Assembly: GCA_965243045.1 (NCBI GenBank)
Contig: CBDETR010000004.1
Coordinates: 160,308-224,307 of the forward strand
DNA: 64,000 bases
Direction of reading: 5' to 3'
Source of the DNA: Alphaproteobacteria bacterium
GTDB lineage: Bacteria; Pseudomonadota; Alphaproteobacteria; JABAAW01; JAHZMA01
The translations under genes were made by a program, and so were the position numbers. Below the pieces are notes generated by a model. The model searched no databases. It had not been told where the DNA came from and was given only the letters and a program-made list of their open reading frames with translations. Position 1 is the first letter of the stretch. Each line of letters starts with the position of its first letter. Below, one piece after another: positions 1 through 48,849 of the stretch.

Positions 1-188
1 CCCGTGAACATAAAAAGATAGCAAGGAACCCCAAACCCCCGCGCATTAATATAGCGCATGGTATCGAACGATAGCGAAAAAATTATATTTATGCGTGAAA
101 AATATAAAAATCTACCCATCATTACCTGTTACATTGATTATCAAGCCATAAAAATATGTCGCTATTTCTTTTAAGGGGAGTTGATCCA

Positions 189-1682
189 ATGCCAGAAACA
201 CAAATATCAGAATTAAATAAATATAAAATGTTTATCGGTGGTGAATGGATAAATGCTGAAAATGATAAATTTTTTGAAAGCGTCAATCCTACAACCAATC
301 AAGCATGGGCGTTAATTCCCGAAGCCAGTGCAAACGATGTTGATAAAGCCGTCAAGGCGGCGCATTATGCGTTTAAGGAAGGCGAGTGGGGGAAATTATT
401 GCCAACACAGCGCGGAGAATATTTACGTAAATTGGCAGATTTATTAGCACAAAATGCTGAAAAATTGGGTGAAATTGAAACAATCGATTCAGGAAAAATG
501 TTCAAGGAAACACGCTGGCAGGCAAAATATATCGCGCAATTTTTTAATTTTTACGCAGGTTGTGCCGATAAAATTAGCGGTGAAACCTTGCCATTAGACC
601 GTTCTGATATGATTGCGATGACAACGCGCGAACCGTTGGGCGTGGTGGCGGCGATTGTACCGTGGAATTCACAATTATTCTTAGTGGCAGTCAAATTAGG
701 CCCAGCACTTGCGGCAGGCAATACGGTGGTATTGAAAGCATCGGAATTTGGTTCGGTTGCCATGCTAGAATTTGCAAAATTGATTGAAGAAGCAGGCTTC
801 CCCAAAGGGGTTGTGAATGTGGTAACAGGGCATGGCGAACCATGTGGTGCCGCGCTGACATCGCATAAATTGGTACGCCGTATCAGCTTCACGGGTGGTC
901 CAAATGCCGCACGCTATGTGTTACAAAATAGTTGCAATAATTTTGCCGAAGTCTCGTTAGAACTGGGCGGAAAATCACCTTTTATTGTGTTTGATGATGC
1001 AAATTTTGAAAGTGCCGTCAATGGTGCTGTGGCAGCAATTTTTGGTGCAACTGGGCAGTCTTGTGTGGCAGGCTCGCGGCTTTATCTGCAAGATACGATT
1101 GCCGATAAATTTCTAGAAAAAATGGTTGGAATTGCTAAAAATATCAAAATTGGTGACCCGATGGCAGAAGAGACTCAAATGGGACCACTGTGTACAGAAG
1201 GGCAGTTAAAGCATATTAAAAATCAAGTTGCTTTAGCCATAGAAGAAGGTGGCAAATTATTATGTGGCGGGAAACAACCTGATTTAGGCGGATTATATTT
1301 TGAACCCACCATCATTGAATGCCCCGATCAAAAACAAACCATTATGGATACCGAATTATTTGGGCCAGTGTTAAGCGTGCATAGATTCAAAACTGAAGAA
1401 GAAGTGATTAAATTGGCAAATGATACCACTCACGGTTTGGCAGCGGGTATTTTCAGCCAAAGTGCCACGCGTTCCTTGCGTGTATCGCGCGCGATTGAAG
1501 CAGGAATTGTGTGGGTGAATACGTATCGCGTTGTATCCCCGATTGTAGAATTTGGTGGCTTTAAGGATTCAGGTTATGGGCGCGAAAGCGGATTCCAAGC
1601 CATGTATGATTATACACGCCCAAAATCAATTTGGATGAGTATTTCTGATGAACCGTTAGGCAATCCGTTTGTGATGCGTTAA
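189..1682 (+). CDS. NAD(P)-dependent aldehyde dehydrogenase (ALDH superfamily)
   Basis: About 500 aa with ALDH signatures (VNPTT near N-term, ELGGKSP, catalytic Cys region FGATGQSCVAGSR). Start moved to the ATG at 189, which is preceded by AAGGGGAG; the ORF track starts at 156. Confidence 0.85.
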   Translation: MPETQISELNKYKMFIGGEWINAENDKFFESVNPTTNQAWALIPEASANDVDKAVKAAHYAFKEGEWGKLLPTQRGEYLRKLADLLAQNAEKLGEIETIDSGKMFKETRWQAKYIAQFFNFYAGCADKISGETLPLDRSDMIAMTTREPLGVVAAIVPWNSQLFLVAVKLGPALAAGNTVVLKASEFGSVAMLEFAKLIEEAGFPKGVVNVVTGHGEPCGAALTSHKLVRRISFTGGPNAARYVLQNSCNNFAEVSLELGGKSPFIVFDDANFESAVNGAVAAIFGATGQSCVAGSRLYLQDTIADKFLEKMVGIAKNIKIGDPMAEETQMGPLCTEGQLKHIKNQVALAIEEGGKLLCGGKQPDLGGLYFEPTIIECPDQKQTIMDTELFGPVLSVHRFKTEEEVIKLANDTTHGLAAGIFSQSATRSLRVSRAIEAGIVWVNTYRVVSPIVEFGGFKDSGYGRESGFQAMYDYTRPKSIWMSISDEPLGNPFVMR

Positions 1683-1712
1683 GGTTTGCTGGCAATTATT
1701 GCCAAAGCGTGA

Positions 1713-1741
1713 TTGACAAAATTCTTAAAACGCAATAAATT
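1713..1741 (+). promoter_or_regulatory. putative sigma70 promoter TTGACA-17nt-TAAATT upstream of second ALDH gene; 7-bp-arm palindrome TGGCAATtATTGCCA at 1690-1704 just upstream
   Basis: Hexamers and spacing read directly from the sequence. The same SD context ttttaaggggag precedes both ALDH start codons. Confidence 0.3.
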
Positions 1742-1790
1742 TAATTTAATTTTATTTCAAGGATTTTATTTTTAAGGGGAGACAGTTATA

Positions 1791-3239
1791 ATGGACTTCA
1801 AAAAATCTCAATTTTTTAAAACTGATTGTTATATTAATGGCGAATGGGTTAAATCTGATAATGGTGCGACCATTCCCGTGCATAGCCCTGCCACAGGCGA
1901 ATTGGTTGCAGAAATTCCATCTTTGAGCAATGCCCAAATTAAACAAGCCATTGATGCCGCAGAAACTGCCTTGCCTGAATGGCGCGCAAAAACAGGCAAA
2001 GAACGCGCGAATCTTATGAGAAAATGGTATCAAATCCTGATGGATAATCAAGAAGAATTGGCACAAATTTTATCGGGCGAAATGGGCAAACCTATTACCG
2101 AAGCACGTGGCGAAATTGCCTATGGTGCCAGCTTCATTGAATGGTTTGCAGAAGAAGCCAAGCGCATTTATGGCGAAACAATTCCCGGTCATATGGCGGA
2201 TAAACGCCTTATGGTTATTCGCCAACCCATTGGCGTTACCGCTGCAATCACACCATGGAATTTTCCCAATGCGATGGTCACGCGCAAATGCGCTCCTGCT
2301 TTGGCGGCGGGCTGTACGATGGTATTGCGTCCTGCGCGCGAAACGCCATTTTCAGCATTCGCCATTGCTCATGCGGCACATTTAGCAGGTATCCCTAAAG
2401 GCGTATTCAGCGTTGTGATGGGTAATTCTGCGGAAGTTGGTTTAGAATTTTGCACCAATCCTATTGTGAAGAAATTATCCTTTACAGGCTCTACAGAAGT
2501 GGGGCGGATATTGTTCAAACAATCGGCAGATAATATTCAAAAATTATCGCTAGAATTGGGTGGCAATGCACCCTTTATCGTGTTTGATGATGCTGATTTG
2601 GATGCGGCTGTGGAAGGTGCGATGCTTTCTAAATTTCGCAATGCGGGGCAAACATGCGTATGCGCCAATCGCTTTTATGTACAAGAAGGCGTGTATGATG
2701 CCTTTGCCGATAAATTAAAAATTCGCACAGAACAATTACATATCGGTGCAGCAGATGATGCAAAAAGTCAGCAAGGTCCGTTGATTAACGCAAATGCGGT
2801 TCTCAAGGTGAAAGACCATATTCAAGATGCTGTTTCCAAAGGTGCAGAGATTATAACTGGCGGGGAATCGCATCAGCAAGGTACAAATTATTTTCACCCT
2901 ACAATCTTAAAACATGTAACGGCAGAAATGAAAATAGCCACCGAAGAAACATTTGGACCTTTGGCACCTTTGTTCAAATTTAAGGATGAAGCGGATGTTA
3001 TTAAACAAGCCAACAATACCATTTTCGGACTGGCAAGCTATTTCTATGCAAAAGATTTAAGCCGTGTATTCCGCGTGGCTGAATCATTAGAATATGGCAT
3101 GGTGGGCGTGAATACGGGTATTATTTCCACTGAAGTGGCACCATTTGGTGGTGTTAAACAATCGGGGTTAGGGCGCGAAGGCTCACGGCACGGCATTGAA
3201 GATTACATGGAATTAAAATATATTTGCATATCAATTTAA
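1791..3239 (+). CDS. gabD: succinate-semialdehyde dehydrogenase-like ALDH (GabD-like)
   Basis: 482 aa. The N-terminus (YINGEWV...SNAQIKQAIDAAETALPEWRAKTGKERANLMRKWYQILMDNQEELAQI) and LELGGNAPFIVFDDADLDAAVEGAMLSKFRNAGQTCVCANR are typical of SSADH/GabD. Confidence 0.75.
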   Translation: MDFKKSQFFKTDCYINGEWVKSDNGATIPVHSPATGELVAEIPSLSNAQIKQAIDAAETALPEWRAKTGKERANLMRKWYQILMDNQEELAQILSGEMGKPITEARGEIAYGASFIEWFAEEAKRIYGETIPGHMADKRLMVIRQPIGVTAAITPWNFPNAMVTRKCAPALAAGCTMVLRPARETPFSAFAIAHAAHLAGIPKGVFSVVMGNSAEVGLEFCTNPIVKKLSFTGSTEVGRILFKQSADNIQKLSLELGGNAPFIVFDDADLDAAVEGAMLSKFRNAGQTCVCANRFYVQEGVYDAFADKLKIRTEQLHIGAADDAKSQQGPLINANAVLKVKDHIQDAVSKGAEIITGGESHQQGTNYFHPTILKHVTAEMKIATEETFGPLAPLFKFKDEADVIKQANNTIFGLASYFYAKDLSRVFRVAESLEYGMVGVNTGIISTEVAPFGGVKQSGLGREGSRHGIEDYMELKYICISI

Positions 3240-3242
3240 AAA

Positions 3243-3316
3243 TCGGAGTGGCAGGATTTGAACCTGCGATCTCTCGGCCCCCAGCCGAACGCTCTACCAA
3301 ACTAAGCCACACTCCG
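3243..3316 (-). tRNA. tRNA-Pro (anticodon GGG)
   Basis: The reverse complement folds as a cloverleaf: acceptor CGGAGTG/CACTCCG with C1-G72 (typical of tRNA-Pro), D arm GCTTAGTTTGGTAGAGC, anticodon stem TTCGG/CCGAG with loop CTGGGGG, T arm GCAGGTTCAAATCCTGC, discriminator A. CCA is not encoded. Confidence 0.85.
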
Positions 3317-5372: not shown

Positions 5373-5825
5373 TTACGTACCCGTTGAGCCAAAACCTTCG
5401 ACACCACGCATCGTTACAGGTAGCTCTTCGCATAATTGAAACTCTATTGCCACATAGCGCGCAATCACCATTTGGGCAATCCGCATTTTAGGCTGAATGA
5501 TAAAATCTTGCTTGCCATGGTTAATCAATAAAACTTTAATTTCACCACGATAATCAGCATCAATCGTGCCGGGACTGTTCAAAATCGTAACGCCATACTT
5601 AAAAGCAAGCCCCGAACGCGGGCGGATTTGTGCTTCGCAATCTTGCGGTAAGGCAATCGCAAAACCTGTTGGAATTAAACAATAATCCCCTGCAGGCAGA
5701 ACCATATCATCGTCAATCGCGGCATGTAAATCGAATCCTGCCGCAAATTTACTTGCGCGCAACGGCAATGTTTCACCATGTGGCAAACGCTGAATGGGTA
5801 GTTGCAACTGAGGAAAATCAGGCAT
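5373..5825 (-). CDS. dut: dUTP diphosphatase
   Basis: 150 aa with dUTPase motifs AAGFDLHA, GLAFKYGVTILNSPGTIDADYRGEIKVLLIN, GFGSTG. Confidence 0.9.
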   Translation of the reverse strand: MPDFPQLQLPIQRLPHGETLPLRASKFAAGFDLHAAIDDDMVLPAGDYCLIPTGFAIALPQDCEAQIRPRSGLAFKYGVTILNSPGTIDADYRGEIKVLLINHGKQDFIIQPKMRIAQMVIARYVAIEFQLCEELPVTMRGVEGFGSTGT

Positions 5826-5828
5826 TTT

Positions 5829-6491
5829 TTAAGATTTTAAAGCGGTGACCAGCCCGTCTAACACACTGGTAACATCAGCAATATCCATCATTGCATCGAT
5901 GGTTTTTAAAATTCCTGTTTTTTGATAATAAGGAATAAGCGGCGCAGTTTGCTGATGAAAAATATCCAACCTATCTTTTACCGTCGTTTCATTATCATCG
6001 GCACGGCGATTAAATTCTTGATGCTGGCATGTATCACAACTATTTTCTTGCTTGGGCAAACGGAAAAAATCATTGTAAACTGTGCCACAATTTTTACAGC
6101 TAAACCGTCCCGAAATGCGCTTTACCAAAATTGCATCATCAACCTGCATTTCAATAACACTGTCTAATTTTTTCTGCATTCCTGATAACATTATATCAAG
6201 CCCTTCAGCCTGAGGAACGGTGCGCGGAAAACCATCTAAAATAAAGCCTGATTGGCAATCATCTTGCTTGAGACGCGAACCAATAATTTCTAGCATCACT
6301 GCATCAGGCATTAATTGCCCGGATTTCATAATTTCATCGGCTTGCTTGCCAAGTTGCGAACCGCTTTTCACTTCTGCGCGTAACATATCGCCAGTAGAAA
6401 GTTGCACAAGCTGATATTTTGCCTGTAAAATTTGTGCTTGCGTGCCTTTACCAACGCCGGGGGGACCTAATAATATTAAATTAACACTCAT
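5829..6491 (-). CDS. adk: adenylate kinase (with Cys4 zinc-type lid)
   Basis: 220 aa with P-loop GPPGVGKGTQA, GFILDGFPRT and LID motif CKNCGTVYNDFFRLPKQENSCDTC. Confidence 0.9.
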   Translation of the reverse strand: MSVNLILLGPPGVGKGTQAQILQAKYQLVQLSTGDMLRAEVKSGSQLGKQADEIMKSGQLMPDAVMLEIIGSRLKQDDCQSGFILDGFPRTVPQAEGLDIMLSGMQKKLDSVIEMQVDDAILVKRISGRFSCKNCGTVYNDFFRLPKQENSCDTCQHQEFNRRADDNETTVKDRLDIFHQQTAPLIPYYQKTGILKTIDAMMDIADVTSVLDGLVTALKS

Positions 6492-6492
6492 T

Positions 6493-7833
6493 TTAACGCT
6501 TTTTCTTACCCTTAATTAAACCCGATTTACGCATCAGACTTTCATATTGGTGCGAGATGAGATGACTCTGAATCTGAACCACCGTATCCATAGTTACCGT
6601 CACCACAATCAGCAAAGAGGTGCCACCAAAATAAAATGGCACAGAATATTTTGCAACCAACCATTCGGGTAACAAACAAACAAAGGTTAAATAAATCGCG
6701 CCAACGGTTGTTAAACGCGTGAGCAATTTATCCAAATAAGCGGCACTATTCGCACCGGGGCGAATGCCCGGAATGATGCCACCATTTTTACGCAAATTTT
6801 CTGCCGTTTCTTCAGGGTTAAACACCAAAGCGGTATAGAAAAAAGCAAAGAAAATAATTAAGGCTGCATAGAGCAGTAAAAACGCAGGTTGCCCGCGTCC
6901 TAAATAGGAATTCACCACTGCTAACCAACCTGTTGCCTCGCCACCACTGTTAAAATTGGCAACCGTTAATGGCAATAATAATAAGGAGCTGGCAAAAATG
7001 GGTGGAATCACACCACTGGTATTTAATTTTAACGGCAAATGCGATGATTCCCCACCAAAGACTTTATTGCCACGCTGGCGTTTTGGATATTGAATTGTGA
7101 CTCTTCTTTGCGCGCGTTCTATAAAAACGATGAAAGCAATCACGCCAACAATCATGAGGAAAAGCAAGAAAATAACGATTGTAGAAAGCACACCTGTGCG
7201 TCCTAATTCTAATGTGCCTGCAAGTGCTGATGGTAAATTGGCAACAATGCCCGAAAAGATAATCAATGAAATGCCATTGCCAACACCACGTTGGGTAATT
7301 TGTTCGCCCAGCCACATTAAAAATATCGTGCCGCCAACAATGGTAATCACGGTTGATAATCTGAAAAATAACCCTGGGTCACTCACTACATTGCCAGCAC
7401 CTTCAAGCCCTACCGCAATGCCATAGCCTTGTACTGTTGCCAAAAGAACCGTGCCGTAACGTGTGAACTGGTTGATTTTTTTTCTTCCTGACTCCCCTTC
7501 TTTCTTCCATTGTTCCAAAGTCGGCACAACCGAAGTCATTAATTGCATAATGATTGAAGCGGAAATATAAGGAATAATATTCAATGCAAAAATCGTCATC
7601 CTACCAAGCGCACCACCTGATAGCATGTTAAACATTCCTAGAATGCCTTGTTGCTGATTGGCAAAAATTTCTTGCAACGCAATTGAATTAATACCCGGAA
7701 GCGGGATATACGTTCCTAGCCGATAAATAATAAGCGCGCCAAGGGTAAATAATAATCTTTTCCTAAGATCAGTTGCTTTTCCAATAGCACCAAAACTAAA
7801 ATTTTGTGCTAATTGTTCTGCCGCAGATGCCAT
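6493..7833 (-). CDS. secY: preprotein translocase subunit SecY
   Basis: 446 aa polytopic membrane protein with typical SecY motifs (GINSIALQE..., LNIIPYISASIIMQL). Confidence 0.95.
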   Translation of the reverse strand: MASAAEQLAQNFSFGAIGKATDLRKRLLFTLGALIIYRLGTYIPLPGINSIALQEIFANQQQGILGMFNMLSGGALGRMTIFALNIIPYISASIIMQLMTSVVPTLEQWKKEGESGRKKINQFTRYGTVLLATVQGYGIAVGLEGAGNVVSDPGLFFRLSTVITIVGGTIFLMWLGEQITQRGVGNGISLIIFSGIVANLPSALAGTLELGRTGVLSTIVIFLLFLMIVGVIAFIVFIERAQRRVTIQYPKRQRGNKVFGGESSHLPLKLNTSGVIPPIFASSLLLLPLTVANFNSGGEATGWLAVVNSYLGRGQPAFLLLYAALIIFFAFFYTALVFNPEETAENLRKNGGIIPGIRPGANSAAYLDKLLTRLTTVGAIYLTFVCLLPEWLVAKYSVPFYFGGTSLLIVVTVTMDTVVQIQSHLISHQYESLMRKSGLIKGKKKR

Positions 7834-7853: not shown

Positions 7854-8675
7854 TTAATCGTCTACTTTTTTGTTGTTGGCTTTTTGGTTGTTGCCTTTGT
7901 TGTCACTGGTTTTGTTGTCGCTGGTTTTTTTGTCACTGGTTTTTTTGTGATTGGCTTTGTTGCTGTTTCTTTTTTCACCGTTTTTACAGTTTCTTTTTTC
8001 AGTTTTTGCCGTCTCAGTTTTTGCCGTCTCAGTTTTTGCCGTCTCAGTTTTTGCCGTCTCAGTTTTTGATAGCGTTTTCTTTGCAGGAGTCGCATCAGCT
8101 GTTTTAACTGCTTCTGTTTTTACTGTTTCTGCTTTAACAGGTGTTGCTGAAGCCGGCTTTGCTTTCTTAACTTTTTTCGTAGTTGCTTCTTTTGTTACTT
8201 TAACAGGCGGGGTGCTTTCTAGCAAAGTCACTTTACCACCGGCTTTTTCAACCAACGCAATCGCAGATTTTGATGCTGCCGTTACCGTAATATTTAGTTT
8301 TGCTTTCAACTCACCTTTTGCAAGTAGGCGCAAATTACCTTCTCGGTTGCTAACCAAACCTGATAATTGCAATTCCTGCCGTGTAATATCTTTACTTAAA
8401 TCAATTCTACCCTCATCACTGGCGGTTTGAATTCTACCTAAATTGATAACAACCCATTTTTTCCGAGAAAGGCTGTTAAATCCACGCTTTGGCAAACGTT
8501 GATAAATAGGCATTTGCCCACCTTCAAAACCTTTGATGGATACGCCAGAACGAGACTTTTGCCCCTTCATTCCGCGCCCAGCAGTTTTACCCTTGCCAGT
8601 ACCTATACCGCGTCCAACCCGCATCGCATCACGAGTTGCACCTTTATTATCACGAATTTCATTCAGCTTCATCAC
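7854..8675 (-). CDS. rplO: 50S ribosomal protein L15 with ~110-aa lysine-rich repetitive C-terminal extension
   Basis: N-terminal ~155 aa is a canonical L15 ([24 protein letters not shown]...). The same ORF continues into the tail [44 protein letters not shown]...(TETAK)x4...(KTSDN)x3...NNKKVDD. Confidence 0.9.
8000..8059. repeat. perfect 15-bp tandem repeat x4 (cagtttttgccgtct) encoding the TETAK repeats of the L15 tail
   Basis: Four identical contiguous units with partial copies on both sides. An imperfect 15-bp periodicity also runs through 7908-7967 (KTSDN repeats). Confidence 0.9.
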
Positions 8676-8857
8676 GAAACCTCTTCTACTTTAATCAGAT
8701 GACTGACCTTATTAATCATACCACGAATTGATGGGGTATCTTCAAGGTCGCGCACGCGATTCATTTTATTTAAACCCAAGCCAATTAATGTTTGTCTTTG
8801 GTCTTTCGTCCGTCTGATTGGGCTTTTAATTTGTGTTACACGAACCTTTTTAGCCAT
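8672..8857 (-). CDS. rpmD: 50S ribosomal protein L30
   Basis: [59 protein letters not shown]. Start chosen at the internal Met of the track ORF to match typical L30 length. Confidence 0.85.
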
Positions 8858-21332: not shown

Positions 21333-21707
21333 TTACTTAGGACGTTTCACGCCATAAAGCGAACGACGTTTTTTTCTATCTTTAACGCCCTGCGTATCTT
21401 GTGTACCACGAATAATATGATAACGAACACCGGGTAAATCTTTTACACGACCGCCACGAATCAACACAACAGAATGTTCTTGCAAATTATGCCCTTCACC
21501 GGGAATGTATGAGGTAACCTCAAAACCATTGGTTAATCTAACCCGTGCAACTTTCCGCAAGGCTGAATTCGGCTTTTTCGGAGCCGTGGTATAAACCCGT
21601 GTGCATACGCCACGCCTTTGGGGACACGCCTGCAATGCCGGCACTTTATTACCAGCGTGCTTCGCTTTTCTTGGCTTCCGTACGAGTTGATTAATGGTTG
21701 GCATCAA
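21333..21707 (-). CDS. rpsL: 30S ribosomal protein S12
   Basis: [13 protein letters not shown]...[31 protein letters not shown]; 124 aa. Confidence 0.97.
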
Positions 21708-22119: not shown

Positions 22120-22956
22120 ATGAAATTCACATCAGGACAAGAATTTAAGGCACAAAAACATTGTGTCATTAGCCTTATGGCAATGTCGGGCATGGGCAAA
22201 ACCTATATGGGGCAAATGCTAGGGGGTGATGGCTGGTTTCATTATTCGGCCGATTATCGAATAGGCACACGCTATCTTATAGAGAATATTTTAGATGAAT
22301 TAAAAACCCGCATGATGGATGATGTGGTATTGCAACAATTATTATGTAGTGATTCTATTTATCTTGCCCATAATTTGACTGTGGATAATTTAGAGTTGCT
22401 CTCAAACTTCATTGGCAAATTTGGCAATCAAAATAAAGGTGGTTTGCTGAAAGATGAATTTTTACGCAGACAAAAGCTTTATGCCGATGCAGAAATTTTA
22501 TCGCAAAGTGATATTGCGCCTTTTATCCATAAAGCGCGTCATATTTATGGCTATCATCATTTCCTGAATGATACCACTGGCTCGCTTTGTGAAATTGCTG
22601 ATATTGATAATATCAATTGCCCGATTATGACAAATATTTGCGAACATTCTGTGCTTATTTATGTTGAAGCTGATTCGGAAGATGAGGAAATAATTATCCA
22701 AAGACAATTACAAGCCCCCAAGCCAATGTATTATAACAACGCATTATTCAATAATGTTTACGCAGAATTGGGTGATGATATCGACCCTGATGATTTTTTG
22801 CGTCAAATTTTTCCACGTACCATACAGCTTAGAAAACATCGTTACCAAAAATTAGCCAAAAATTATGGTTACACAATTACCAGTAAAGATTTTTATAACG
22901 TTAAAAATAGTTATGATTTTATTGATTTAATTTCTGAAACAATTGATAATAGTTGA
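22120..22956 (+). CDS. hypothetical P-loop NTPase/kinase-like protein (Walker A SGMGKT near N-terminus)
   Basis: 278 aa. ISLMAMSGMGKTYMG fits GxxxxGK[ST]; hydrophobic-acidic stretch VLIYVEADSEDEE is a possible Walker B. I could not recognise a named family. Confidence 0.55.
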   Translation: MKFTSGQEFKAQKHCVISLMAMSGMGKTYMGQMLGGDGWFHYSADYRIGTRYLIENILDELKTRMMDDVVLQQLLCSDSIYLAHNLTVDNLELLSNFIGKFGNQNKGGLLKDEFLRRQKLYADAEILSQSDIAPFIHKARHIYGYHHFLNDTTGSLCEIADIDNINCPIMTNICEHSVLIYVEADSEDEEIIIQRQLQAPKPMYYNNALFNNVYAELGDDIDPDDFLRQIFPRTIQLRKHRYQKLAKNYGYTITSKDFYNVKNSYDFIDLISETIDNS

Positions 22957-22980: not shown

Positions 22981-23970
22981 ATGCCCATTAAAATTCCTGA
23001 TGATTTGCCGGCGCAGAAAATCCTTTCATTAGAAGGGGTGCCCTTGATTACCCAGCATGATGCGCTGATTCAAGATATTCGCCCGTTGAAAATTGCCATC
23101 TTAAACCTGATGCCTAATAAAATTCAAACCGAAACACAGATTGCGCGTTTGCTTGGGCATTCGCCATTGCAGATTGAACTTTATCTGATGAAAATTGGCG
23201 CACATCAATCAAAAAACACCTCGCATGACCATTTGTTACATTTCTATCAAAATTGGGAAGAACTCTCTGAACAATATTTTGATGGGCTGATTATTACTGG
23301 CGCGCCATTAGAACATATTCCCTTTGAAGAGGTTACTTATTGGCATGAGTTGCAAGAGATTTTTGATTGGAGCTTACAGCATGTCACAAAAGTTTTTACA
23401 ATTTGCTGGGGTGCGCAAGCCGCGCTTTATCATTTTTATGGCATCGAAAAATCTTTGTTAACAGAAAAAAACTTCGGCATTTTTCAACAACAAATCAACC
23501 CAGCCTATCGTCATCATCACCTTATTCATGGGATTAATGATTCTGCCGCTGTTCCTGTTTCACGCCATAGTGAAACACGCCAAGAAGATATTGATGCCAT
23601 CAGCCATCTGATAACATTACTAACATCTGATGAAACAGGCGCTTGTTTGGTAGAAGATAGCTGTACACAATATGTATATATGTTTAATCATTTGGAATAT
23701 GATTCCCACACATTGCGCGATGAATATCAGCGTGACAGTCAGGCAAATAAGAAAGTCAACTTGCCACAATCTTATTTTCCCAATGATAAACCAGAAGCAG
23801 AGCCTATCAATGTTTGGCGTTCTACGGCACATTTGTTATTCCGTAATTGGCTGGATGATATGTATCAAGCATCGCCTTTTGAGATAACAGAAATTAAAAC
23901 ACGTCATCTGCCCACAAAATTTAAACATCACCCCAAAACAAAAAAATATTGTAATCAAGGAGCCTTATAA
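22981..23970 (+). CDS. metA: homoserine O-acyltransferase (MetA family)
   Basis: MPIKIPDDLPA...LKIAILNLMPNKIQTETQIARLL...PLQIELYLMKI and the catalytic region FTICWGAQAALYHFYGI are typical of MetA. About 20 aa longer than usual at the C-terminus. Confidence 0.85.
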   Translation: MPIKIPDDLPAQKILSLEGVPLITQHDALIQDIRPLKIAILNLMPNKIQTETQIARLLGHSPLQIELYLMKIGAHQSKNTSHDHLLHFYQNWEELSEQYFDGLIITGAPLEHIPFEEVTYWHELQEIFDWSLQHVTKVFTICWGAQAALYHFYGIEKSLLTEKNFGIFQQQINPAYRHHHLIHGINDSAAVPVSRHSETRQEDIDAISHLITLLTSDETGACLVEDSCTQYVYMFNHLEYDSHTLRDEYQRDSQANKKVNLPQSYFPNDKPEAEPINVWRSTAHLLFRNWLDDMYQASPFEITEIKTRHLPTKFKHHPKTKKYCNQGAL

Positions 23971-26900
23971 TGAGCGCTATGAAAAATGCTTTCCTGAAAA
24001 AAATTCATGCAGCTTTGCCAAAAGTAAATGAAAAAGACCATCAGGATTTAATCAAGTTTACCGATGAGTTTTTTCTTTATATGACTCATAAGGATATACA
24101 TTTTATGGATTGCGACATAATGGCGAAACAGATTGTTCGTTATTGGGAAATTTGTTGCAAAAAGAATAACACAAAAACTGTGTTAGATATTTTTAACCAT
24201 ACCGAACCTTTGCCCCATGGTGGCGAAAAAATGCGTTACCGCACCTCTTTCTTTGTTGCGCTTCCTGATATGCAATTCACCGTAGGCACGATTTTAAACA
24301 ATCTGCGGACACAGAATTTGGATTTACATATTTTCTTTCATTCGGTGATACGCCCTGAAAATGTAAATATTTCTTACCCCACAGCCATCGCTTGCCTTTA
24401 TGTTGAAACCAGTCGCGTCAGTGATGAAACCCAGCTTGAGCTTGTTAAAGAGACATTATTGGATGATATAAAAAACCTTATTTTGGTCAATCAAGATTAT
24501 CCGGCAATGAAAAAAATGCTGAAAGGAATCGAACAAGATTACCGTAAAGTTGCCAAAAATAACTATGATACAGAAGTTGCAAATTTCATAGAATGGGCGA
24601 GAGATGGTAATTATATTATGTTTGGTTCACGCATACTTACCCATCAAGGCGAAAAAGATAAATTATCGTATCAAATTGAAGAAAAATCAACCTTAGGCTT
24701 GCTGAAAAATCCTGATGTAGAAATATCACATTATAGACGTGAAGGCGAGGTGATGTCTGAAGAATTTCAACATTTTGCCAATCATAAACGACATCTTAGA
24801 ATTAGCAAAAGCACTTATATTTCAACCGTTCATCGCAAATCAGCCTATGATTTAATTCGCATTAAACGCTATGATGATGCTCGTAATCTTATTGGTGAAT
24901 ATGAATTATGTGGGTTATTTTCTTCCAGTTATTTTGCAAAAGCTGTTACCGAAATTCCCTTACTTCGTATCAACACACAAACAGTTTTTGACAAGCTCAA
25001 TATTAATCATTCCCGTTACAGTACAGGGTTATTTTATCATGTGATTAATAATTATCCGCGCGAAGATATGTGGCATGATAATATTGAAAAATTAGCCGAA
25101 GATGTGATGGCTGTGATGGAAGCAGAAACATGTATGCATAGCAAGCTGATTACCCATGTTGACCCTTATGGTAATTTCATTACAACCAATCTTTATATTC
25201 CCACTCATATTTATTCGTCTCATCTTACCGTAAAATTAATTGCCGCATTAGAGGAAGCCTTTAATGCAACTTTACGCGAACATCGTTTTTATACAGGCGA
25301 TGGTTCGCTTTCACGAGTCAATATTATTTTTAATACAACTCCTGGCAATGTGCCTAAATTTTCTCAAGAAGCCTTAGAAAAACGCATTGTTGCCATCAGC
25401 ATGCCATGGCATGAAGATTTGAATGAAGTGCTGATTAAGACATATTCTGATAATGAAGCACAAAATCTTTACATGTGTTATATGCATGCTTTCCCTATTA
25501 ATTATTGTGATACCAATGCGATGACACGCACCCTTGCCGATATAATGCTGATTGAAAAAGCAATGGTAGATGATGATACGGTGAGTATGGAGATTTATGC
25601 GGATGAAAAAGATGAAGAGCAACCATGGCATTTGCGAATGGTTCAATTGGGGCATATTTCTTTATCAGATATTTTACCTAAATTAGAATCAACAGGCGCA
25701 AAAGTAGGCGAAGCCAATCATTACAATATTGCTCCTCTTGGTTCACCTGAAGCAACCCTTTACGATTTCAAATTGCATTTCAATAATGTTGATGTGCAAA
25801 TCTTAAAAACAGAATTTACAAGAACATTTCGTGAAATTTGGAAAAACCGATTTGCCGTAGATGATTCAAATGCACTCACCTTACTCACGGGTGCAAATTA
25901 CCGAGAAATTTTATTATTCCGCGCAATCAGTGCTTATTTCCGTCAAGGAAAACTAGCCTTTAGCGAACATAGAATCAGAGAATGTTTATTTGATTATCCT
26001 GAAATTACCAAATTATTGATTGAGTATTTTCATGCCCGTTTCAATCCTGAAAATCAATCAAAACGCCATGAAACAAATATTAAAACCAAAATATTACATG
26101 CGTTAGATGGCGTGAAAACATTAGAAGAAGATAGAATTTTACATACATTGCTTGATTTCATGCAAGCTGTGCAACGCACCAATTTTTATCAAGCCATTCG
26201 TGATGAAAATGACCCTATCATCAATTTCAAAATTGCCAGTTCTGAATTAGAATTTTTACCTGAACCACGTCCGTTCCGTGAAATTTTTGTTTATTCCGAA
26301 CGGTTTGAAGCTGTGCATTTGCGTTTCGGTTATGTCGCACGTGGTGGTTTGCGTTGGTCGGATCGTCAAGATGATTTCCGCACCGAAATTTTGGGGCTTG
26401 TCAAAGCGCAACAAGTGAAAAATGCTGTGATTATCCCTGTGGGCTCCAAAGGCGGATTTGTCATGAAAACCCAACAGCCCGATAAAGAAAGTTTCATGAA
26501 AGAAGGCGTGCATTGCTATCAGCGCTTCATTCAATCCATGCTAGATATTACCGATAATCTAGATAATAATAATGTCACGCATCCTGATAATGTGGTGTGC
26601 CATGATGGTGATGACCCTTATTTAGTGGTTGCTGCCGATAAAGGCACGGCAACATTTTCTGATATTGCCAATGAAATTGCTGTCAATCACGGCTTCTGGC
26701 TAGGCGATGCTTTCGCCTCAGGGGGGTCTGTGGGTTATGACCATAAAAAAATGGGCATTACCGCACGTGGTGCATGGGAATGTGTAAAACGGCATTTCCG
26801 TGAATTAAATATTAATATCCAAGAAACGCCTTTCACTGTGATTGGTGTTGGTGATATGTCGGGCGATGTATTTGGTAATGGCATGTTGCTTTCTAAGAAA

Positions 26901-28739
26901 ATCTTATTACGTGGTGCATTCAACCATATGCATATATTTATTGACCCTAACCCCGACCCCAAATCAACTTGGGAGGAACGCAAACGGTTGTTTGATATGC
27001 CTCGTTCTTCTTGGAGTGACTATGATACAAAACTTATGTCTAAAGGCGGAAAAATTTATGAACGCTCTGCCAAAGAACTGACCCTAACCCCTGAAATTCA
27101 AAAACTATTAGGGCTGGATGTGAAAACCATTACCCCTGATGAGCTTATTCATGCCTTATTGATAAGCGAAACACAGCTTTTATGGTTTGGTGGTATTGGC
27201 ACGTATCTTAAAGCAACCAGTGAAAGCGACCTTGATGTTGGCGATAAAGCCAATAATGCGATTAGAATTAATGCCAATGAAACGAAGGCAAAAGTGATTG
27301 GTGAGGGTGCAAATTTAGGGCTTACACATAAAGCACGGATTGAATATGCCATCAATGGTGGCAGATGTAATACCGATGCGGTTGATAATTCCGCTGGTGT
27401 TGATTGTTCTGACCATGAGGTGAATCTGAAAATTCTTCTTGCCCAAGCAATTAGTTCTAACAAATTAAAACAAGAAGACCGCGATGCACTTCTTGAAACC
27501 ATGACCGATGATATTGCGAAATTGGTGCTAGAAAATAACTATCAGCAGAGCCAAACCTTGAGCATGATTTTAGCGCAAGGCGTGGATTTTGTGGACCAAC
27601 AACAACAATTAATTCGTGATTTTGTAGATATGGGTAAATTAAATCGAGAATTAGAATTTCTACCGCTCGATTCTGAAATTGAACGCAGACACGAAAATCA
27701 TATCGGTTTGAACCGTCCTGAATTATGCGTGTTGCTTGCTTATGCCAAAAATATCGCTTATCAGGAATTGCTAGAAACCAATATTCCTGACGACCCTTTC
27801 TACGCTGATATTGTCTATAATTATTTTCCGAAAAAAATGACTGATATGTTTGGCAAACTCATTGAAAAACATCAGTTGAAGCGTGAAATTGTTGCAACGA
27901 TGCTGATTAATCAGATGATTAATTGCACAAGTGCTTCTTTCATCAATACGATGAAAAATCGTACCAATGCTGAAATTTCTGAAATCACCAATGCGTTTAC
28001 GATTGTTTATCAAATTTTTGATTTGCATGATTTCCGCAATCAAATTGAAGCGTTGGATAATAAAATCAGTACTGATTTACAGCTAGCTATGTTGTTTGAA
28101 ACCTATCGAACAGCCAACCGTATTGTAGAATGGTTTATATTCAATGAAAAACCACCTTTTAATTTGAAAAAATTAACACAAAAATATGGCAAGCCATTGC
28201 AAGAGTTGAAAAAACAGATGGCAAATATTTTGCCTAAACCATTGCTTGATTCTCATAAAAACCGTGTTGCCCGCTACACATCGCAAGGTGTGTCGCAAGA
28301 ATTGGCAAATAATATCGGTAGCTTAAAATTATTTTCTAATATTTGTGAAATCACGCAACTTGCTGAAAAATTAAATCATAAAACGCTGTTGATTGCAGAA
28401 TATTATTTCACCCTATCAGAACGTTTCTCGATTGATTGGTTGCGGACGCAAATTAATATCCTTATTAAGAATGCTAATAAATGGGATAAGAAAGCATTGC
28501 AAACGGTTGCCGATGATTTATGGCATTTGCAATCGCAATTAACCCGCTTTGTAGTGCTTCGTTATGAACAAGGCGATGCAAAGATGGATGATACGATGGA
28601 TAAATTTATCAATGACCATGCAAAATCTTTGCAATCTATCGATAATTTATTATTAAATTGCCGTAATCAAAATTTGACCTTAGCCTTATTAACTGTAACC
28701 ACACGTGAAATGAATAAATTGCTGTTAATGCATCAATAA
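23970..28739 (+). CDS. gdhB: NAD-specific glutamate dehydrogenase, large (~180 kDa) GdhB type
   Basis: 1589 aa. The central catalytic region (RGGLRWSD..., VIPVGSKGGFV, GDMSGDVFGNGML, NSAGVDCSDHEVNLKIL) matches the Bac_GDH family. Start overlaps the metA stop. Confidence 0.9.
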   Translation: MSAMKNAFLKKIHAALPKVNEKDHQDLIKFTDEFFLYMTHKDIHFMDCDIMAKQIVRYWEICCKKNNTKTVLDIFNHTEPLPHGGEKMRYRTSFFVALPDMQFTVGTILNNLRTQNLDLHIFFHSVIRPENVNISYPTAIACLYVETSRVSDETQLELVKETLLDDIKNLILVNQDYPAMKKMLKGIEQDYRKVAKNNYDTEVANFIEWARDGNYIMFGSRILTHQGEKDKLSYQIEEKSTLGLLKNPDVEISHYRREGEVMSEEFQHFANHKRHLRISKSTYISTVHRKSAYDLIRIKRYDDARNLIGEYELCGLFSSSYFAKAVTEIPLLRINTQTVFDKLNINHSRYSTGLFYHVINNYPREDMWHDNIEKLAEDVMAVMEAETCMHSKLITHVDPYGNFITTNLYIPTHIYSSHLTVKLIAALEEAFNATLREHRFYTGDGSLSRVNIIFNTTPGNVPKFSQEALEKRIVAISMPWHEDLNEVLIKTYSDNEAQNLYMCYMHAFPINYCDTNAMTRTLADIMLIEKAMVDDDTVSMEIYADEKDEEQPWHLRMVQLGHISLSDILPKLESTGAKVGEANHYNIAPLGSPEATLYDFKLHFNNVDVQILKTEFTRTFREIWKNRFAVDDSNALTLLTGANYREILLFRAISAYFRQGKLAFSEHRIRECLFDYPEITKLLIEYFHARFNPENQSKRHETNIKTKILHALDGVKTLEEDRILHTLLDFMQAVQRTNFYQAIRDENDPIINFKIASSELEFLPEPRPFREIFVYSERFEAVHLRFGYVARGGLRWSDRQDDFRTEILGLVKAQQVKNAVIIPVGSKGGFVMKTQQPDKESFMKEGVHCYQRFIQSMLDITDNLDNNNVTHPDNVVCHDGDDPYLVVAADKGTATFSDIANEIAVNHGFWLGDAFASGGSVGYDHKKMGITARGAWECVKRHFRELNINIQETPFTVIGVGDMSGDVFGNGMLLSKKILLRGAFNHMHIFIDPNPDPKSTWEERKRLFDMPRSSWSDYDTKLMSKGGKIYERSAKELTLTPEIQKLLGLDVKTITPDELIHALLISETQLLWFGGIGTYLKATSESDLDVGDKANNAIRINANETKAKVIGEGANLGLTHKARIEYAINGGRCNTDAVDNSAGVDCSDHEVNLKILLAQAISSNKLKQEDRDALLETMTDDIAKLVLENNYQQSQTLSMILAQGVDFVDQQQQLIRDFVDMGKLNRELEFLPLDSEIERRHENHIGLNRPELCVLLAYAKNIAYQELLETNIPDDPFYADIVYNYFPKKMTDMFGKLIEKHQLKREIVATMLINQMINCTSASFINTMKNRTNAEISEITNAFTIVYQIFDLHDFRNQIEALDNKISTDLQLAMLFETYRTANRIVEWFIFNEKPPFNLKKLTQKYGKPLQELKKQMANILPKPLLDSHKNRVARYTSQGVSQELANNIGSLKLFSNICEITQLAEKLNHKTLLIAEYYFTLSERFSIDWLRTQINILIKNANKWDKKALQTVADDLWHLQSQLTRFVVLRYEQGDAKMDDTMDKFINDHAKSLQSIDNLLLNCRNQNLTLALLTVTTREMNKLLLMHQ

Positions 28740-35682: not shown

Positions 35683-37131
35683 CTAAAAAAGGGCTGATGA
35701 TGCCAACCGTGACATATAAATTAATGGTGATGGCCAAAGTGCAAAAATCACTATCAATGTTGCTGTTGATAAAATAACCACACGTAATATTAAATTATGA
35801 CTAATCATATGCACTGTTTTTGGTGCCTCAAAAAACATCAAACGAATAATATATAAATAATAAAAAGCACTGATAACACTGGTTAATGCCGCAATCACAA
35901 CCAAAATATATAATTCTTGTTCTAAAGCCGCTGTGAATACATAAAATTTTGCAAAGAAACCCGCCATAGGTGGAATGCCTGCCATTGAAAACATGAATAT
36001 CATCAATGCGATGGCAATGCCCGGAGAATTTTGCAACAACCCAGATAAATCGCTAATATTTTCATAATCACCCTGCTGATTGCGTATCGATAAAATACAG
36101 GCAAATAACCCAATGCTGGTAATCATATAAATGGTTAGATACACCATGATTGCTGTTAAGCCATCTTCTGTACCCGCACTTAAACCTACCAAAGCATAGC
36201 CCATATGCCCGATTGAACTATAGGCAATTAACCTTTTGATATTGCTTTGGGCAATCGCCGCAAAACATGCCAACCCCATAGACAGACTGGCAATCAACAT
36301 CACCACCATCTGCCATTGCGCCACAACATCGCCAAATGCCACAATAAGTAACCGTGCAAATAATATAAAGGCGGCAATTTTTGGAACTGTGGCAAAGAAA
36401 GTGGTCACAGGCAGTGGAGTGCCTTCATAAACATCAGGAGTCCACATATGGAATGGCACAGCTGAAAGCTTAAATGCCAAACCCGCAATCAAAAAACTCA
36501 TCCCTATAATGGCGCCAACAGGCAATTGGTCTGATTGTAACTGACTCGCAATTTCAGGAAAGGAAAGACTGCCCGTAAAGCCATAAACCAAACTCGCGCC
36601 ATATAAAATAACCGCTGATGCCAAGGCACCTAGCACAAAATATTTTAAGCTGGCTTCAGATTCACGAATAGAATCACGTCGAAATGCAACCATCACATAA
36701 AGCGCCAAGCTTTGTAGCTCCAAACCAATATAAAGCACAAGCAAATGATTGGCAGAAATCATCACCAACATTCCAAGCACAGCAAACAAAACCAAAATAG
36801 GATATTCAAATTGATTCATACCCACATTTTTACATTCTTCGGCACTGATGAGCAGAACAGCAAATGTACCTGCCAGCACTAACATTTTGCTATAAGCAAC
36901 CAAATCATCCCAGATATATTGTCCTGCAAAAATAGTATGATTGTTATCTGGAAACCAATTAAACTGCAACAATATCACGATAAAACAGCCTGCCAATACC
37001 GCCAAACTTAAACCATGCGTTAGACGATAGGCCTTGCCTGCCTCGTTAATAAACACAGCACCGCCAATTAATAATAAAATCGTAGATGCAAGAATAATTT
37101 CTGCCAAAAGAATTGAAGCGTGATATAGCAT
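35683..37131 (-). CDS. nuoN: NADH-quinone oxidoreductase subunit N
   Basis: 482 aa polytopic antiporter-like subunit, last gene of the nuo operon. Confidence 0.9.
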   Translation of the reverse strand: MLYHASILLAEIILASTILLLIGGAVFINEAGKAYRLTHGLSLAVLAGCFIVILLQFNWFPDNNHTIFAGQYIWDDLVAYSKMLVLAGTFAVLLISAEECKNVGMNQFEYPILVLFAVLGMLVMISANHLLVLYIGLELQSLALYVMVAFRRDSIRESEASLKYFVLGALASAVILYGASLVYGFTGSLSFPEIASQLQSDQLPVGAIIGMSFLIAGLAFKLSAVPFHMWTPDVYEGTPLPVTTFFATVPKIAAFILFARLLIVAFGDVVAQWQMVVMLIASLSMGLACFAAIAQSNIKRLIAYSSIGHMGYALVGLSAGTEDGLTAIMVYLTIYMITSIGLFACILSIRNQQGDYENISDLSGLLQNSPGIAIALMIFMFSMAGIPPMAGFFAKFYVFTAALEQELYILVVIAALTSVISAFYYLYIIRLMFFEAPKTVHMISHNLILRVVILSTATLIVIFALWPSPLIYMSRLASSALF

Positions 37132-37152
37132 TAATATGTGACCTTTCTAAAC

Positions 37153-38634
37153 CTATGAGACTTGATTGATGCGCTCAACCAAAAATTCTACAGGCAAATC
37201 AAAAAAATTCAAAAAGGTAATCGGATAGATACCCATCCATAATACCAACATGGCAATCCCTACAAATATCAAACTTTCACGCCTATCTAATTCTTTTATA
37301 TCCGCAAGGGCAGAAAGCAATTGCCCATACATAACTTTCCGATAAAGCACGAGAGCATAAGTTGCCCCTAGCACCATACCGCTGGCAATCAAAGTGCCGA
37401 CAATCGTGCTGGCTTGAAATGTTCCGGCAAGTACCAAAAATTCGCCGACAAAGCCACTTGTGCCGGGCAAGCCAACAGATGCCATTGTAAAGAATAAAAA
37501 GAAAAATGCGTAGCGTGGCATTCGATTCACCAACCCTGAATATTTTGCAATTTCGCGAGTATGCATTCGGTCATAAACAACGCCCACACATAAAAATAAC
37601 GCTGCTGAGATTAAGCCATGGCTTAACATTTGCACCATCGCACCATTGATACCCTGCACATTGCCTGAAAATAAACCCGCCGTTACAAAACCCATATGTG
37701 CCACAGATGAATAGGCGATTAGTTTTTTCATATCCGTTTGCACCAATGCCACCAAAGATGCATAGACCACAGCGATAATGGAAAGCCCAAACACTAACGG
37801 CGCAAAATAAACGCTGGCATCGGGTAACATGGGCAATGAGAAACGTAAAAAACCATAACCACCCATTTTCAACAGCACCCCTGCTAAAATAACCGAACCT
37901 GCCGTAGGGGCTTCCACATGGGCATCGGGCAACCATGTATGCACAGGCCACATCGGCATTTTGACTGCAAATGATGCAAAAAACGCCAACCACAGCCATT
38001 TCTGTAAACCCACTGGGAAATCATAATTCATCAATTCTGGTATATCGGTTGTACCCGCTTGATAACTTAACACGATGATGGCAATCAGCATCAAAATGGA
38101 CCCTAGCAATGTATAAAGGAAAAACTTAAATGCCGCATAAATTTTATTCTTGCCACCCCAAATCCCGATAATCACAAACATCGGAATCAAAACCGCTTCA
38201 AAAAACACATAAAATAAGACGCTATTTAGCGCAGCAAATGTGCCAAGCATTAAGGTTTCTAAAATCAAAAAAGCCACCATGTAATATTTGACATTATTGG
38301 TAATAGAATGCCAACTTGCCAAGATACAAATAGGCACAAGAAAGCTTGTCAATAAAATGAAACTCAGCGAAATGCCATCGATGCCCACATGGTAAAAAAT
38401 ATTTGTGCCGGGAAACCACGAAATTTTTTCTTCAAACTGAAACCCTTCTGCATGTGTATCAAACCCAACCCATAATAAAAGAGTCAACAGGAACACTGCC
38501 GTTGATACCGCTAAACTTGTCCGCCTTGCACTCAGTGCTGTACTTTGTTCAGCATCGCGCAAAAACGACATTGCCCCCACCCCTATTAAGGGTAAGAAAA
38601 TAATAATGCTTAAAATAGGCCATTGTGCAATCAT
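37153..38634 (-). CDS. nuoM: NADH-quinone oxidoreductase subunit M
   Basis: 493 aa antiporter-like subunit with WLPDAHVEAPTAGSVILAG. Confidence 0.9.
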   Translation of the reverse strand: MIAQWPILSIIIFLPLIGVGAMSFLRDAEQSTALSARRTSLAVSTAVFLLTLLLWVGFDTHAEGFQFEEKISWFPGTNIFYHVGIDGISLSFILLTSFLVPICILASWHSITNNVKYYMVAFLILETLMLGTFAALNSVLFYVFFEAVLIPMFVIIGIWGGKNKIYAAFKFFLYTLLGSILMLIAIIVLSYQAGTTDIPELMNYDFPVGLQKWLWLAFFASFAVKMPMWPVHTWLPDAHVEAPTAGSVILAGVLLKMGGYGFLRFSLPMLPDASVYFAPLVFGLSIIAVVYASLVALVQTDMKKLIAYSSVAHMGFVTAGLFSGNVQGINGAMVQMLSHGLISAALFLCVGVVYDRMHTREIAKYSGLVNRMPRYAFFFLFFTMASVGLPGTSGFVGEFLVLAGTFQASTIVGTLIASGMVLGATYALVLYRKVMYGQLLSALADIKELDRRESLIFVGIAMLVLWMGIYPITFLNFFDLPVEFLVERINQVS

Positions 38635-38642
38635 TGTTATTC

Positions 38643-40574: not shown

Positions 40575-40576
40575 GA

Positions 40577-40897
40577 TTAGCCCTTCATCGTAGAAATTGT
40601 ATCAACAGCAATAGATGCGCGGTTGCGATAATAAACCACCAAAATTGCTAAACCTATAGCCGCTTCCGCCGCCGCCACTGAAAGAATGAATAGGCTAAAA
40701 ATTTGCCCAGCATAATCATTAAGTTCTGTTGAAACAGCGACAAAATTAATATTCACCGCCAGCAACATTAATTCAATAGACATTAAAATAACAATCACAT
40801 TCCGACGATTCAGAAAAATGCCAAACAATCCGAAAGTGAAAATAATCGAACTCAAAATAAAATAGTGACTCAATGTAACATCAAAACCCATCATCAA
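40577..40897 (-). CDS. nuoK: NADH-quinone oxidoreductase subunit K
   Basis: 106 aa three-helix subunit with [13 protein letters not shown]. Confidence 0.9.
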
Positions 40898-41499: not shown

Positions 41500-41517
41500 T
41501 TTCGCTATAACTTCCCA

Positions 41518-42000: not shown

Positions 42001-42017
42001 TATAAACCCCTTTTGCC

Positions 42018-43025: not shown

Positions 43026-43034
43026 CTTCTCTTT

Positions 43035-45098: not shown

Positions 45099-45107
45099 AA
45101 TTTTTCC

Positions 45108-46382: not shown

Positions 46383-46385
46383 CTA

Positions 46386-48160: not shown

Positions 48161-48180
48161 AATTAATGATGCAACCTCTC

Positions 48181-48837: not shown

Positions 48838-48849
48838 ATTATCATCCCA

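Follow-up and report, generated by a model that had tools for sequence, protein, structure and literature searches.

Why does the gene for a core ribosomal protein continue for some 120 codons past the end of its canonical domain? The question is raised by rplO, which encodes ribosomal protein L15 (uL15), in a 64,000-nucleotide stretch of alphaproteobacterial DNA (assembly GCA_965243045.1, contig CBDETR010000004.1, positions 160,308 to 224,307), the whole of which we call the window. A first-pass annotation made from the sequence had reported that the rplO open reading frame (ORF) runs in frame past the L15 domain into a basic low-complexity tail, and our minus-strand reading matches it as far as the terminal NNKKVDD. 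The reading that we prefer, at a probability of about 0.6, is that the gene encodes a normal uL15 with a disordered, polycationic extension, about 120 residues long, in which Lys, Thr, Ala and Pro predominate. This extension would be a trait of the clade, remodeled by slippage and selected for its charge; it would carry a compensated frameshift in its distal part, and would bind polyanions non-specifically.

The identity of the protein itself is clear. The ORF at 7854..8675 (minus strand) is L15, and its true start is the ATG at 8672, giving a protein of 272 residues; this start is backed by 100% identity to a database protein (P0001) and by the MKLNEIRDN start in all of the relatives. The Pfam profile PF00828 (Ribosomal_L27A) matches residues 76-150 at 65.1 bits against a cut-off of 21.5, while residues 1-151, including the Gly/Lys/Arg-rich N-terminal part, align to the solved chain 28ye_U (E=8.5e-45) and to dozens of further solved bacterial uL15 chains. 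The gene occupies the spc-operon position of uL15, between rpmD (L30) and secY, and the order rpmD-rplO-secY-adk-dut is kept in the relatives. The core ends near residue 151 and the tail that follows it comprises about 121 residues (8219..7857, minus strand), so that the extension described in the first pass stands, while the sizes given for it, a core of about 155 and a tail of about 110 residues, do not.

The tail contains 30 Lys (25%), 22 Thr and 15 Ala among its 121 residues, carries a net charge of +16, and raises the mass of L15 from 16.3 to 29.3 kDa. Lys, Ala, Thr and Pro account for 78-88% of the tail in 40-residue windows, and of the window's ORFs of 60 codons or more, only rplO (in its two frames) has a region of this type. 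We counted it, at 25% Lys, as a Lys-rich low-complexity extension in the sense of a survey of bacterial proteins (PMC6821194), taking a Lys fraction of about 30% as the mark of such regions. In the AlphaFold model residues 156-272 lack secondary structure and have predicted local distance difference test (pLDDT) values of 42-50, whereas the globular domain reaches about 90; the tail is thus predicted to be intrinsically disordered. The open frame is very unlikely to be due to chance: when the A-rich DNA of the tail is itself shuffled, it stays open in 0.4% of cases, and with the base composition of the whole window in 0.03%.

To place the tail in context we searched 5.8 billion proteins for L15 homologues. 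The search returned the window protein itself, P0001, and a set of close relatives, P0002-P0010, with 56-79% identity overall to the window L15; one scan of genome contigs gave a single clade member, L001, which is the source of P0006, and did not return the genome of the window. Leaving out P0008 and P0010, which come from error-laden 3x contigs, the relatives carry tails of 83-151 residues with the same K/A/T/P/V/E composition, about 25-27% Lys and a net charge of +13 to +31. These tails end on an acidic residue (D or E), as in ...SDSEE, ...SDSKE, ...TTDKKAD, ...TKKTTDE and ...PTDKKID, and the tail end lies 0-20 nt from the secY start in the window and relatives alike. The Lys-rich extension is thus conserved across all good-quality orthologues of the clade, with similar composition and end motif, and the same open extension is present in at least eight independently assembled relatives. 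This comparison of rplO lengths, which the first-pass annotation had proposed, bears out its view that the tail is lineage-specific, in that the clade relatives share it. In the tail DNA of the relatives the coding frame has 0 stop codons, whereas 4-9% of the codons in the other two frames are stops; we conclude from this that the open frame of the tail is maintained. Judged from these alignments, the tail is inherited across a whole uncultured clade of alphaproteobacteria and is not a peculiarity of the window genome.

The two proteins left out of these statistics have evident defects. In P0010 (L085 3001-3720, contig ctg5163_3x) a stretch of the tail is out of frame, and in P0008 (L086 2501-3103, contig ctg5872_3x) the tail is truncated, and 178 nt of seemingly non-coding DNA separate it from secY. 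Both contigs, whose 3x tag we read as about 3x coverage, also carry broken L6, secY or adk genes, and the two sequences are demonstrably corrupted, their tails being best read as products of frameshift errors and not as natural variants. On L086, ribosomal protein S5 (1661-2314) is called at 217 residues against 177-184 in the window and the other relatives, probably a frameshift artefact.

In a broader view, tails of at least 20 residues occur in 29 of the 118 top L15 matches. The tails of L15 in alphaproteobacteria span 0 to about 150 residues in length and -18 to +31 in charge; several metagenome-derived Hyphomicrobiales have basic tails of 51-71 residues, and many alphaproteobacterial tails outside the clade start out basic next to the core and turn acidic farther from it, with a low or negative net charge. 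Against this background, the clade of the window stands apart by its long, strongly basic tails. The representatives clustered at 50% identity include many long L15 proteins with unrelated C-terminal appendages, and additions to the C-terminus of uL15 seem to be recurrent. The long appendages of P0130 (285 residues), P0244 (316), P0145 (459) and P0182 (301) do not look like low-complexity sequence, an example being ...GGVGPKLEGTLNELGIYHFWQIAEF... in P0130.

The repeats within the tails give insight into how they grew. In the window tail a 15-bp unit, its length divisible by three, is repeated perfectly in tandem (4.7 copies, 100% identity) and encodes four TETAK units plus TE. The four TETAK units built from perfect 15-bp repeats had been recognized in the first pass, but were placed at 8000-8059, whereas Tandem Repeats Finder delimits the array at 7999-8068. 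The tail of L001/P0006 has a 15-bp repeat of 3.4 copies (100% identity) that encodes KKETV, and that of L081/P0009 has a 33-bp repeat of 2.3 copies (100% identity) together with arrays of period 45, 48 and 81 bp, of KKPATKKPTT type; the period of every strong tail array is a multiple of three. In four strains of a sister species the cores are 100% identical and all differences fall in the tail, including one-codon indels but not whole repeat units. This agrees with the earlier description of the tail as built from repeats and prone to indels, and copy-number polymorphism of TETAK between strains is plausible. Two scans of metagenome DNA, of which the first used the exact junction of the repeat and the second a degenerate pattern spanning the core-tail boundary, returned no second strain of the window species.

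The first-pass annotation took the tail for a fusion of a basic sequence to L15. Our searches speak against this: the tail alone, used as a query against the 5.8 billion proteins, has no match at E<=0.001, and in a Pfam scan neither its annotated nor its frame-corrected form matches H1, Hc1 or HC2 even at E<=10. Gene fusion as the origin is not supported, in view of the absence of any homologue outside L15, the repeats of 3n bp peculiar to each lineage, and the graded tail lengths in alphaproteobacteria. Growth in place by slippage fits better, because the tail is without homologues, each lineage has its own 3n repeats, and lengths run from 0 to about 150 residues. Most likely, then, the tail grew in place by slipped-strand mispairing and not by fusion with a histone-like gene.

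Examination of the distal part of the tail revealed that its annotated frame differs from that of the relatives. We built composition models from the tails of four relatives, each translated in three frames, and scored segments of the window tail in bits per residue. The proximal tail scores -2.94 against the coding frame of the relatives and -5.26 and -4.44 against their other frames, consistent with its being in the native frame. The annotated distal segment behaves in the opposite manner, with -3.49 bits per residue on the out-of-frame model against -4.74 on the in-frame model, while the +1 frame of the same DNA reaches -2.74 on the in-frame model. As annotated, the distal segment resembles no relative; the KKPATKKPTT repeats of the relatives, translated out of frame, yield the words ETSDEKTSNGK and KTNNGK of the window protein. 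The degenerate array in this segment (7865-7962) is homologous in its DNA to the KKPATKKPTT repeats of L081, where they lie in the coding frame of L081.

Codon usage, a measure that draws on no relatives, gives the same picture. The genome mean is 0.30 bits per codon; the distal segment reaches +0.32 in the +1 frame and -0.45 in the annotated frame, and the proximal tail is positive in the annotated frame only. In the annotated distal frame 10 of the 11 Asn codons are AAC, where the genome rate of AAC is 13% (P=1.3e-8), and all three Asp codons are GAC; across the genome AAT and GAT make up 87% of the Asn and Asp codons. When both shifts are undone, the end of the protein aligns with ...ATKKPTDKKID* of P0009 and ...KKTTDKKAD* of P0004. 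Taken together, these three independent lines of evidence show the +1 frame to be the one in which the distal tail DNA evolved. The segment thus has an alternative-frame translation that matches orthologues and is flanked on both sides by native frame, as in the pairs of compensatory frameshift mutations (pCFM) of a published survey. Two statements of the first-pass annotation are altered by this result: the block given there as three copies of KTSDN really contains KTSD three times and is an out-of-frame reading, and the other-frame RRQKL... ORF, dismissed as a pure artefact of the repeat, corresponds in its downstream half to the ancestral reading of the distal tail. The suggestion that a frameshift be looked for proved useful: L15 is not cut to 155 residues, but a compensated double shift lies inside the tail. 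The change of frame leaves the content of basic residues unaltered, with K+R at 15 of 44 in both distal frames; the charge of the tail survives because runs of AAA read as Lys in every frame.

We also considered a programmed -1 frameshift of dnaX type at A_AAA_AAG followed by TAG (7862-7872, minus strand), and rejected it, as the heptamer is in register for the +1 frame only. No recoding is needed for the ORF, because the annotated frame is open throughout and no ribosome enters the +1 frame. In that frame the tail would end ...ACA AAA AAG TAG, and a -1 slip there would read VDD*; this is probably a by-product of A-richness and of the missing base.

Table 1. Features of the rplO locus in the window, ordered along the coding strand from rpmD to secY.
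Feature	Coordinates	Strand	Basis or remark
rpmD (L30, 61 aa)	8672..8857	minus	ORF listing; stop overlaps rplO start
rplO coding sequence (272 aa + TAA stop, 29.3 kDa, net charge +35)	7854..8672	minus	ORF listing
Canonical uL15 core, aa 1-151	8220..8672	minus	alignment to solved bacterial uL15 chains; AlphaFold pLDDT ~90 at aa 71-150
Proximal non-repeated tail, aa 152-201, K/A/T/V/P-rich, native frame	8069..8219	minus	composition and codon usage
Perfect 15-bp tandem repeat, 4.7 copies, coding-strand unit ACTGAGACGGCAAAA, encodes (TETAK)x4	7999..8068	minus	Tandem Repeats Finder score 140, 100% matches
Upstream shift site, A6 run on coding strand (T6 on plus)	7994..7999	minus	three-frame translations and homopolymer list; one base extra relative to the ancestral frame
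Distal 44 codons, aa 226-269, annotated frame differing from the ancestral +1 frame	7866..7997	minus	composition, codon usage, end motif
Degenerate 15-bp array, 6.5 copies, 80% identity; +1-frame pentapeptides KKP(V/A/T)T	7865..7962	minus	Tandem Repeats Finder
Downstream shift site AAAAAG/GTAGAC	7863..7871	minus	one base missing relative to the ancestral frame; reading returns to the terminal VDD frame
Acidic C-terminus V-D-D and TAA stop	7854..7865	minus	20 nt upstream of the secY start codon
secY, same operon, downstream of rplO	6493..7833	minus	ORF listing; starts 20 nt past the rplO stop

These observations can be combined into a proposed mode of action. Short repeat units of 3n bp (15 bp here) would expand and contract by slipped-strand events and so remodel the tail in place, with selection acting on the open frame, the composition, the charge and the acidic end and not on the exact sequence. 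Two compensating one-base indels at A-runs would have shifted the distal 44 codons and left the positive charge unchanged. In the subunit, the globular C-terminal domain of uL15 occupies a surface position. While the uL15 core would anchor the protein in the 50S subunit, the tail would probably project from the solvent surface, because the core is locked in the 50S, because longer organellar uL15 is tolerated in assembled subunits, and because of the surface position of the C-terminal domain. There the tail may bind polyanions non-specifically, with the rRNA surface or mRNA as the most probable targets, and such binding would add electrostatic shielding and stabilization or would tether RNA. 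Lysine-rich low-complexity regions in ribosomal and nucleic-acid-binding proteins have been linked to non-specific binding of DNA or RNA (PMC6821194).

Several points weigh against this reading. The retention of the tail on mature ribosomes, and any binding by it, are matters that we infer. The sequence of the tail is poorly conserved and a change of frame over 44 codons has been tolerated, which fits weak or no selection equally well; an A-rich mutational bias together with slippage could sustain a Lys-rich composition without selection; and no solved bacterial ribosome bears such a tail. The window species was encountered a single time, which leaves a pair of sequencing errors as a possible source of the frame shift.

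This last point bears on the distal segment alone, where we slightly favor a real compensated frameshift, produced by one-base indels at two A-runs; whichever indel came first, the intermediate would be viable. The competing explanation, an assembly artefact in which the A-run at 7994-7999 is one base too long and the site at 7863-7871 one base too short, falls somewhat short of even odds; the real protein would then end in the frame-corrected sequence. Both shift sites lie at A6 runs, and the shifted segment has no adaptation to its annotated frame, as is evident from the score of -0.45 bits per codon and the rare AAC in 10 of 11 Asn codons. Errors of this kind are seen in the same tail, and as broken L6, secY and adk genes, in the low-coverage long-read contigs L085 and L086, and of 624 candidate genes for compensated frameshifts in a systematic survey of vertebrates and insects, quality filtering left only 6 (PMC8935012). 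However, the window contains 176 homopolymer runs of at least six bases and about 60 genes, none of which is visibly frameshifted; two errors within 130 bp of each other are improbable under a uniform error rate; and the source contig, at 1.93 Mb, is taken as suggesting good coverage. The shifted frame is also free of stops for 44 codons, whereas about 9% of the codons in the corresponding frame of the relatives are stops. Forty-four stop-free codons are expected if selection filtered the outcome, and would be mere luck if the shifts were errors.

With regard to the tail as a whole, the principal rival to a charge-selected extension is a neutral passenger, that is, low-complexity sequence made by slippage and tolerated at the solvent-exposed C-terminus of uL15, with no function of its own. 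We consider this rather unlikely, although much of what has been described above would suit it: the tail evolves fast while the core is frozen, the change of frame over 44 codons is tolerated, tail lengths vary from 83 to 151 residues within the clade and tail charges from -18 to +31 in other alphaproteobacterial L15, and the L15 C-termini of other lineages carry unrelated appendages too. A sequence free to drift would not readily account for an open frame of 83-151 codons in every good-quality member of the clade despite stop-rich alternative frames, nor for repeat periods that are multiples of three in every case detected. Composition, strong positive charge and the acidic last residue persist at 56-79% overall identity, and about 13 kDa of additional sequence on one of the most abundant proteins of the cell is costly.

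At the opposite extreme, the tail may be a selected ribosome-borne module that tethers mRNA, nucleoid or polyphosphate or replaces shielding by Mg2+ or polyamines, with AAA-rich coding that makes it robust to frameshifts and compensated frameshifts as a normal occurrence. This is a speculative proposal that we regard as distinctly unlikely; were it true, the deposited sequence would be correct and the 'KTSDN' segment would be a recently frame-swapped and still functional part of the protein.

A histone-H1-like moonlighting role, in which the tail binds nucleoid DNA or polyphosphate and tethers ribosomes or free L15 to the chromosome, appears improbable. The repetitive K/A/P/T-rich composition does resemble that of bacterial H1-like proteins, the P0009 tail has a sub-threshold match to chlamydial HC2 (17.7 bits, E=0.004, cut-off 40), and the H1-like protein AlgP has been reported to act on the spacing of polyphosphate granules (PMC9239181). 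However, the window tail reaches the cut-off of no H1, Hc1 or HC2 family and has no homologue among non-L15 proteins, and L15 is stoichiometrically locked into the 50S subunit, where RNA is the nearest and most abundant polyanion. The histone-H1-like label of the first pass is consequently apt for composition but not for family membership. A last possibility, which the first pass had itself named as refuting its view, is that a missed stop codon or frameshift has created the entire tail artificially and that the true L15 ends near residue 155. It has a negligible chance of being correct: nothing speaks for it beyond the generic possibility of sequencing error, no relative has a stop codon near residue 155, secY follows too closely to leave room for a separate gene, and a missed stop or private frameshift is ruled out as the origin of the tail because independent relatives share both it and the rpmD-rplO-secY-adk-dut context.

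The L15 tail is a real but modest further example of the known Lys-rich extensions of ribosomal proteins. Its interest lies partly in the carrier: uL15 is essential, and it joins the ribosomal proteins that are able to carry long, lysine-rich disordered tails. The L15 proteins of the clade are 237-305 residues long compared with 131-161 for every solved bacterial uL15, the longest being about twice that size, and the clade offers a place to test the role of such tails on an abundant protein. The distal segment illustrates cleanly that A-rich lysine tails can undergo a change of frame without loss of charge. We note that public entries hold out-of-frame or truncated tails (the distal third of P0001, P0008 and P0010), which would mislead proteomics searches and repeat analyses.

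In the surroundings of rplO, L30 has 61-63 residues in the relatives and abuts rplO, and the remaining proteins of the S10 and spc operons are of ordinary length in the window and relatives. Ribosomal protein L3 (16387-17172, minus strand) has 261 residues, with a non-basic low-complexity C-terminal extension of about 50 residues after ...LRDAVKK; L3 of the relative L081 has 275. Within the tail, sites for an internal promoter or terminator for secY are no more numerous than in shuffled sequence. The spc operon here runs on through secY-adk-dut (5373-7833, minus strand), and rpsM-rpsK-rpoA-rplQ, the usual next genes in Alphaproteobacteria, are absent after it, as they are in the relatives L081, L082 and L084. 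The rpsL gene (21333-21707, minus strand) is without rpoB and rpoC before it; its upstream neighbor is a divergent ORF of 278 residues (22120-22956, plus strand) that no Pfam family matches, and beyond this ORF lies a homoserine O-succinyltransferase gene.

An Rfam scan of the window found one tRNA only. Two tandem aldehyde dehydrogenase paralogues of 508 and 482 residues (156-3239, plus strand) are followed by a tRNA gene (3243-3316, minus strand), and 23970-28739 (plus strand) encodes an intact NAD-specific glutamate dehydrogenase of the large bacterial type, with 1589 residues and a Bac_GDH catalytic domain (E=1.6e-247). By size and order only, the 14 ORFs at 35683-49754 (minus strand) fit a complete nuoA-N (NADH dehydrogenase I) operon.

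Our literature search gave no publication on basic C-terminal tails of L15 in alphaproteobacteria; the closest parallels are of several other kinds. A survey of bacterial ribosomal proteins described 822 low-complexity regions, among them L21 regions with more than 30% Lys in 34 of 45 cases (Ntountoumi et al., 2019, NAR; PMC6821194). The proteins highlighted there are S2, S16 and L25, then S3, S6, L3, L10, L17, L19, L21 and L31, with L15 not among them. For L15, the survey has K-rich regions in three Micrococcales proteins only, where a K/A/P-rich stretch occupies residues 15-75, in the N-terminal part. Like the regions of that survey, the tail described here extends the end of a ribosomal protein with low-complexity sequence in which Lys, Ala and Pro abound; the survey interprets its regions as non-specific nucleic-acid binders. 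In contrast to the L15 cases of the survey, it is C-terminal, Thr-rich, much longer (83-151 residues in the clade) and alphaproteobacterial.

The mosquito proteins RpS6 and RpL23a have been described as carrying histone-H1-like Lys-rich C-terminal extensions (Hernandez and Fallon, 1999, 2007, as cited in PMC11764897). They share with the L15 tail the independent evolution of a Lys-rich low-complexity extension on a canonical ribosomal protein; they are eukaryotic, involve other ribosomal proteins and have real H1 sequence similarity, whereas the window tail has no detectable similarity to H1 families. Short K/A/P(T) repeats, predicted disorder and strong positive charge are features that the tail has in common with chlamydial Hc1/HC2, Pseudomonas AlgP, mycobacterial and Streptomyces HupB, and the tails of Ku and topoisomerase I, of which the Lys-repeat tails of Ku and topoisomerase I are cited in the bacterial survey as non-specific DNA binders (PMC6821194). 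These H1-like bacterial proteins and tails act on DNA, while the carrier here is a ribosomal protein whose tail is unmatched by Pfam HC2.

For the frame change, the comparison is with the pCFM cases of vertebrates and insects, which tend to lie close to the ends of genes and where conservation is poor (PMC8935012). As in these cases, the segment in the window is shifted between two indels that sum to zero modulo three; unlike them, it is bacterial and lies in an A-rich lysine tail, with its charge kept and sequencing error as an alternative.

Finally, the solved uL15 chains place the extension in a structural context. All of the bacterial chains have 131-161 residues, and substantially longer ones are found only among organellar uL15m and uL15c: yeast uL15m has 322 residues (homologous region 61-217), mammalian uL15m 296 (27-177) and plastid uL15c 271 (82-255). 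Like these proteins, which we compare by length and not by sequence, the window L15 has a chain longer than its uL15-homologous region, and by analogy the organellar chains show that additions to uL15 can be compatible with an assembled large subunit.

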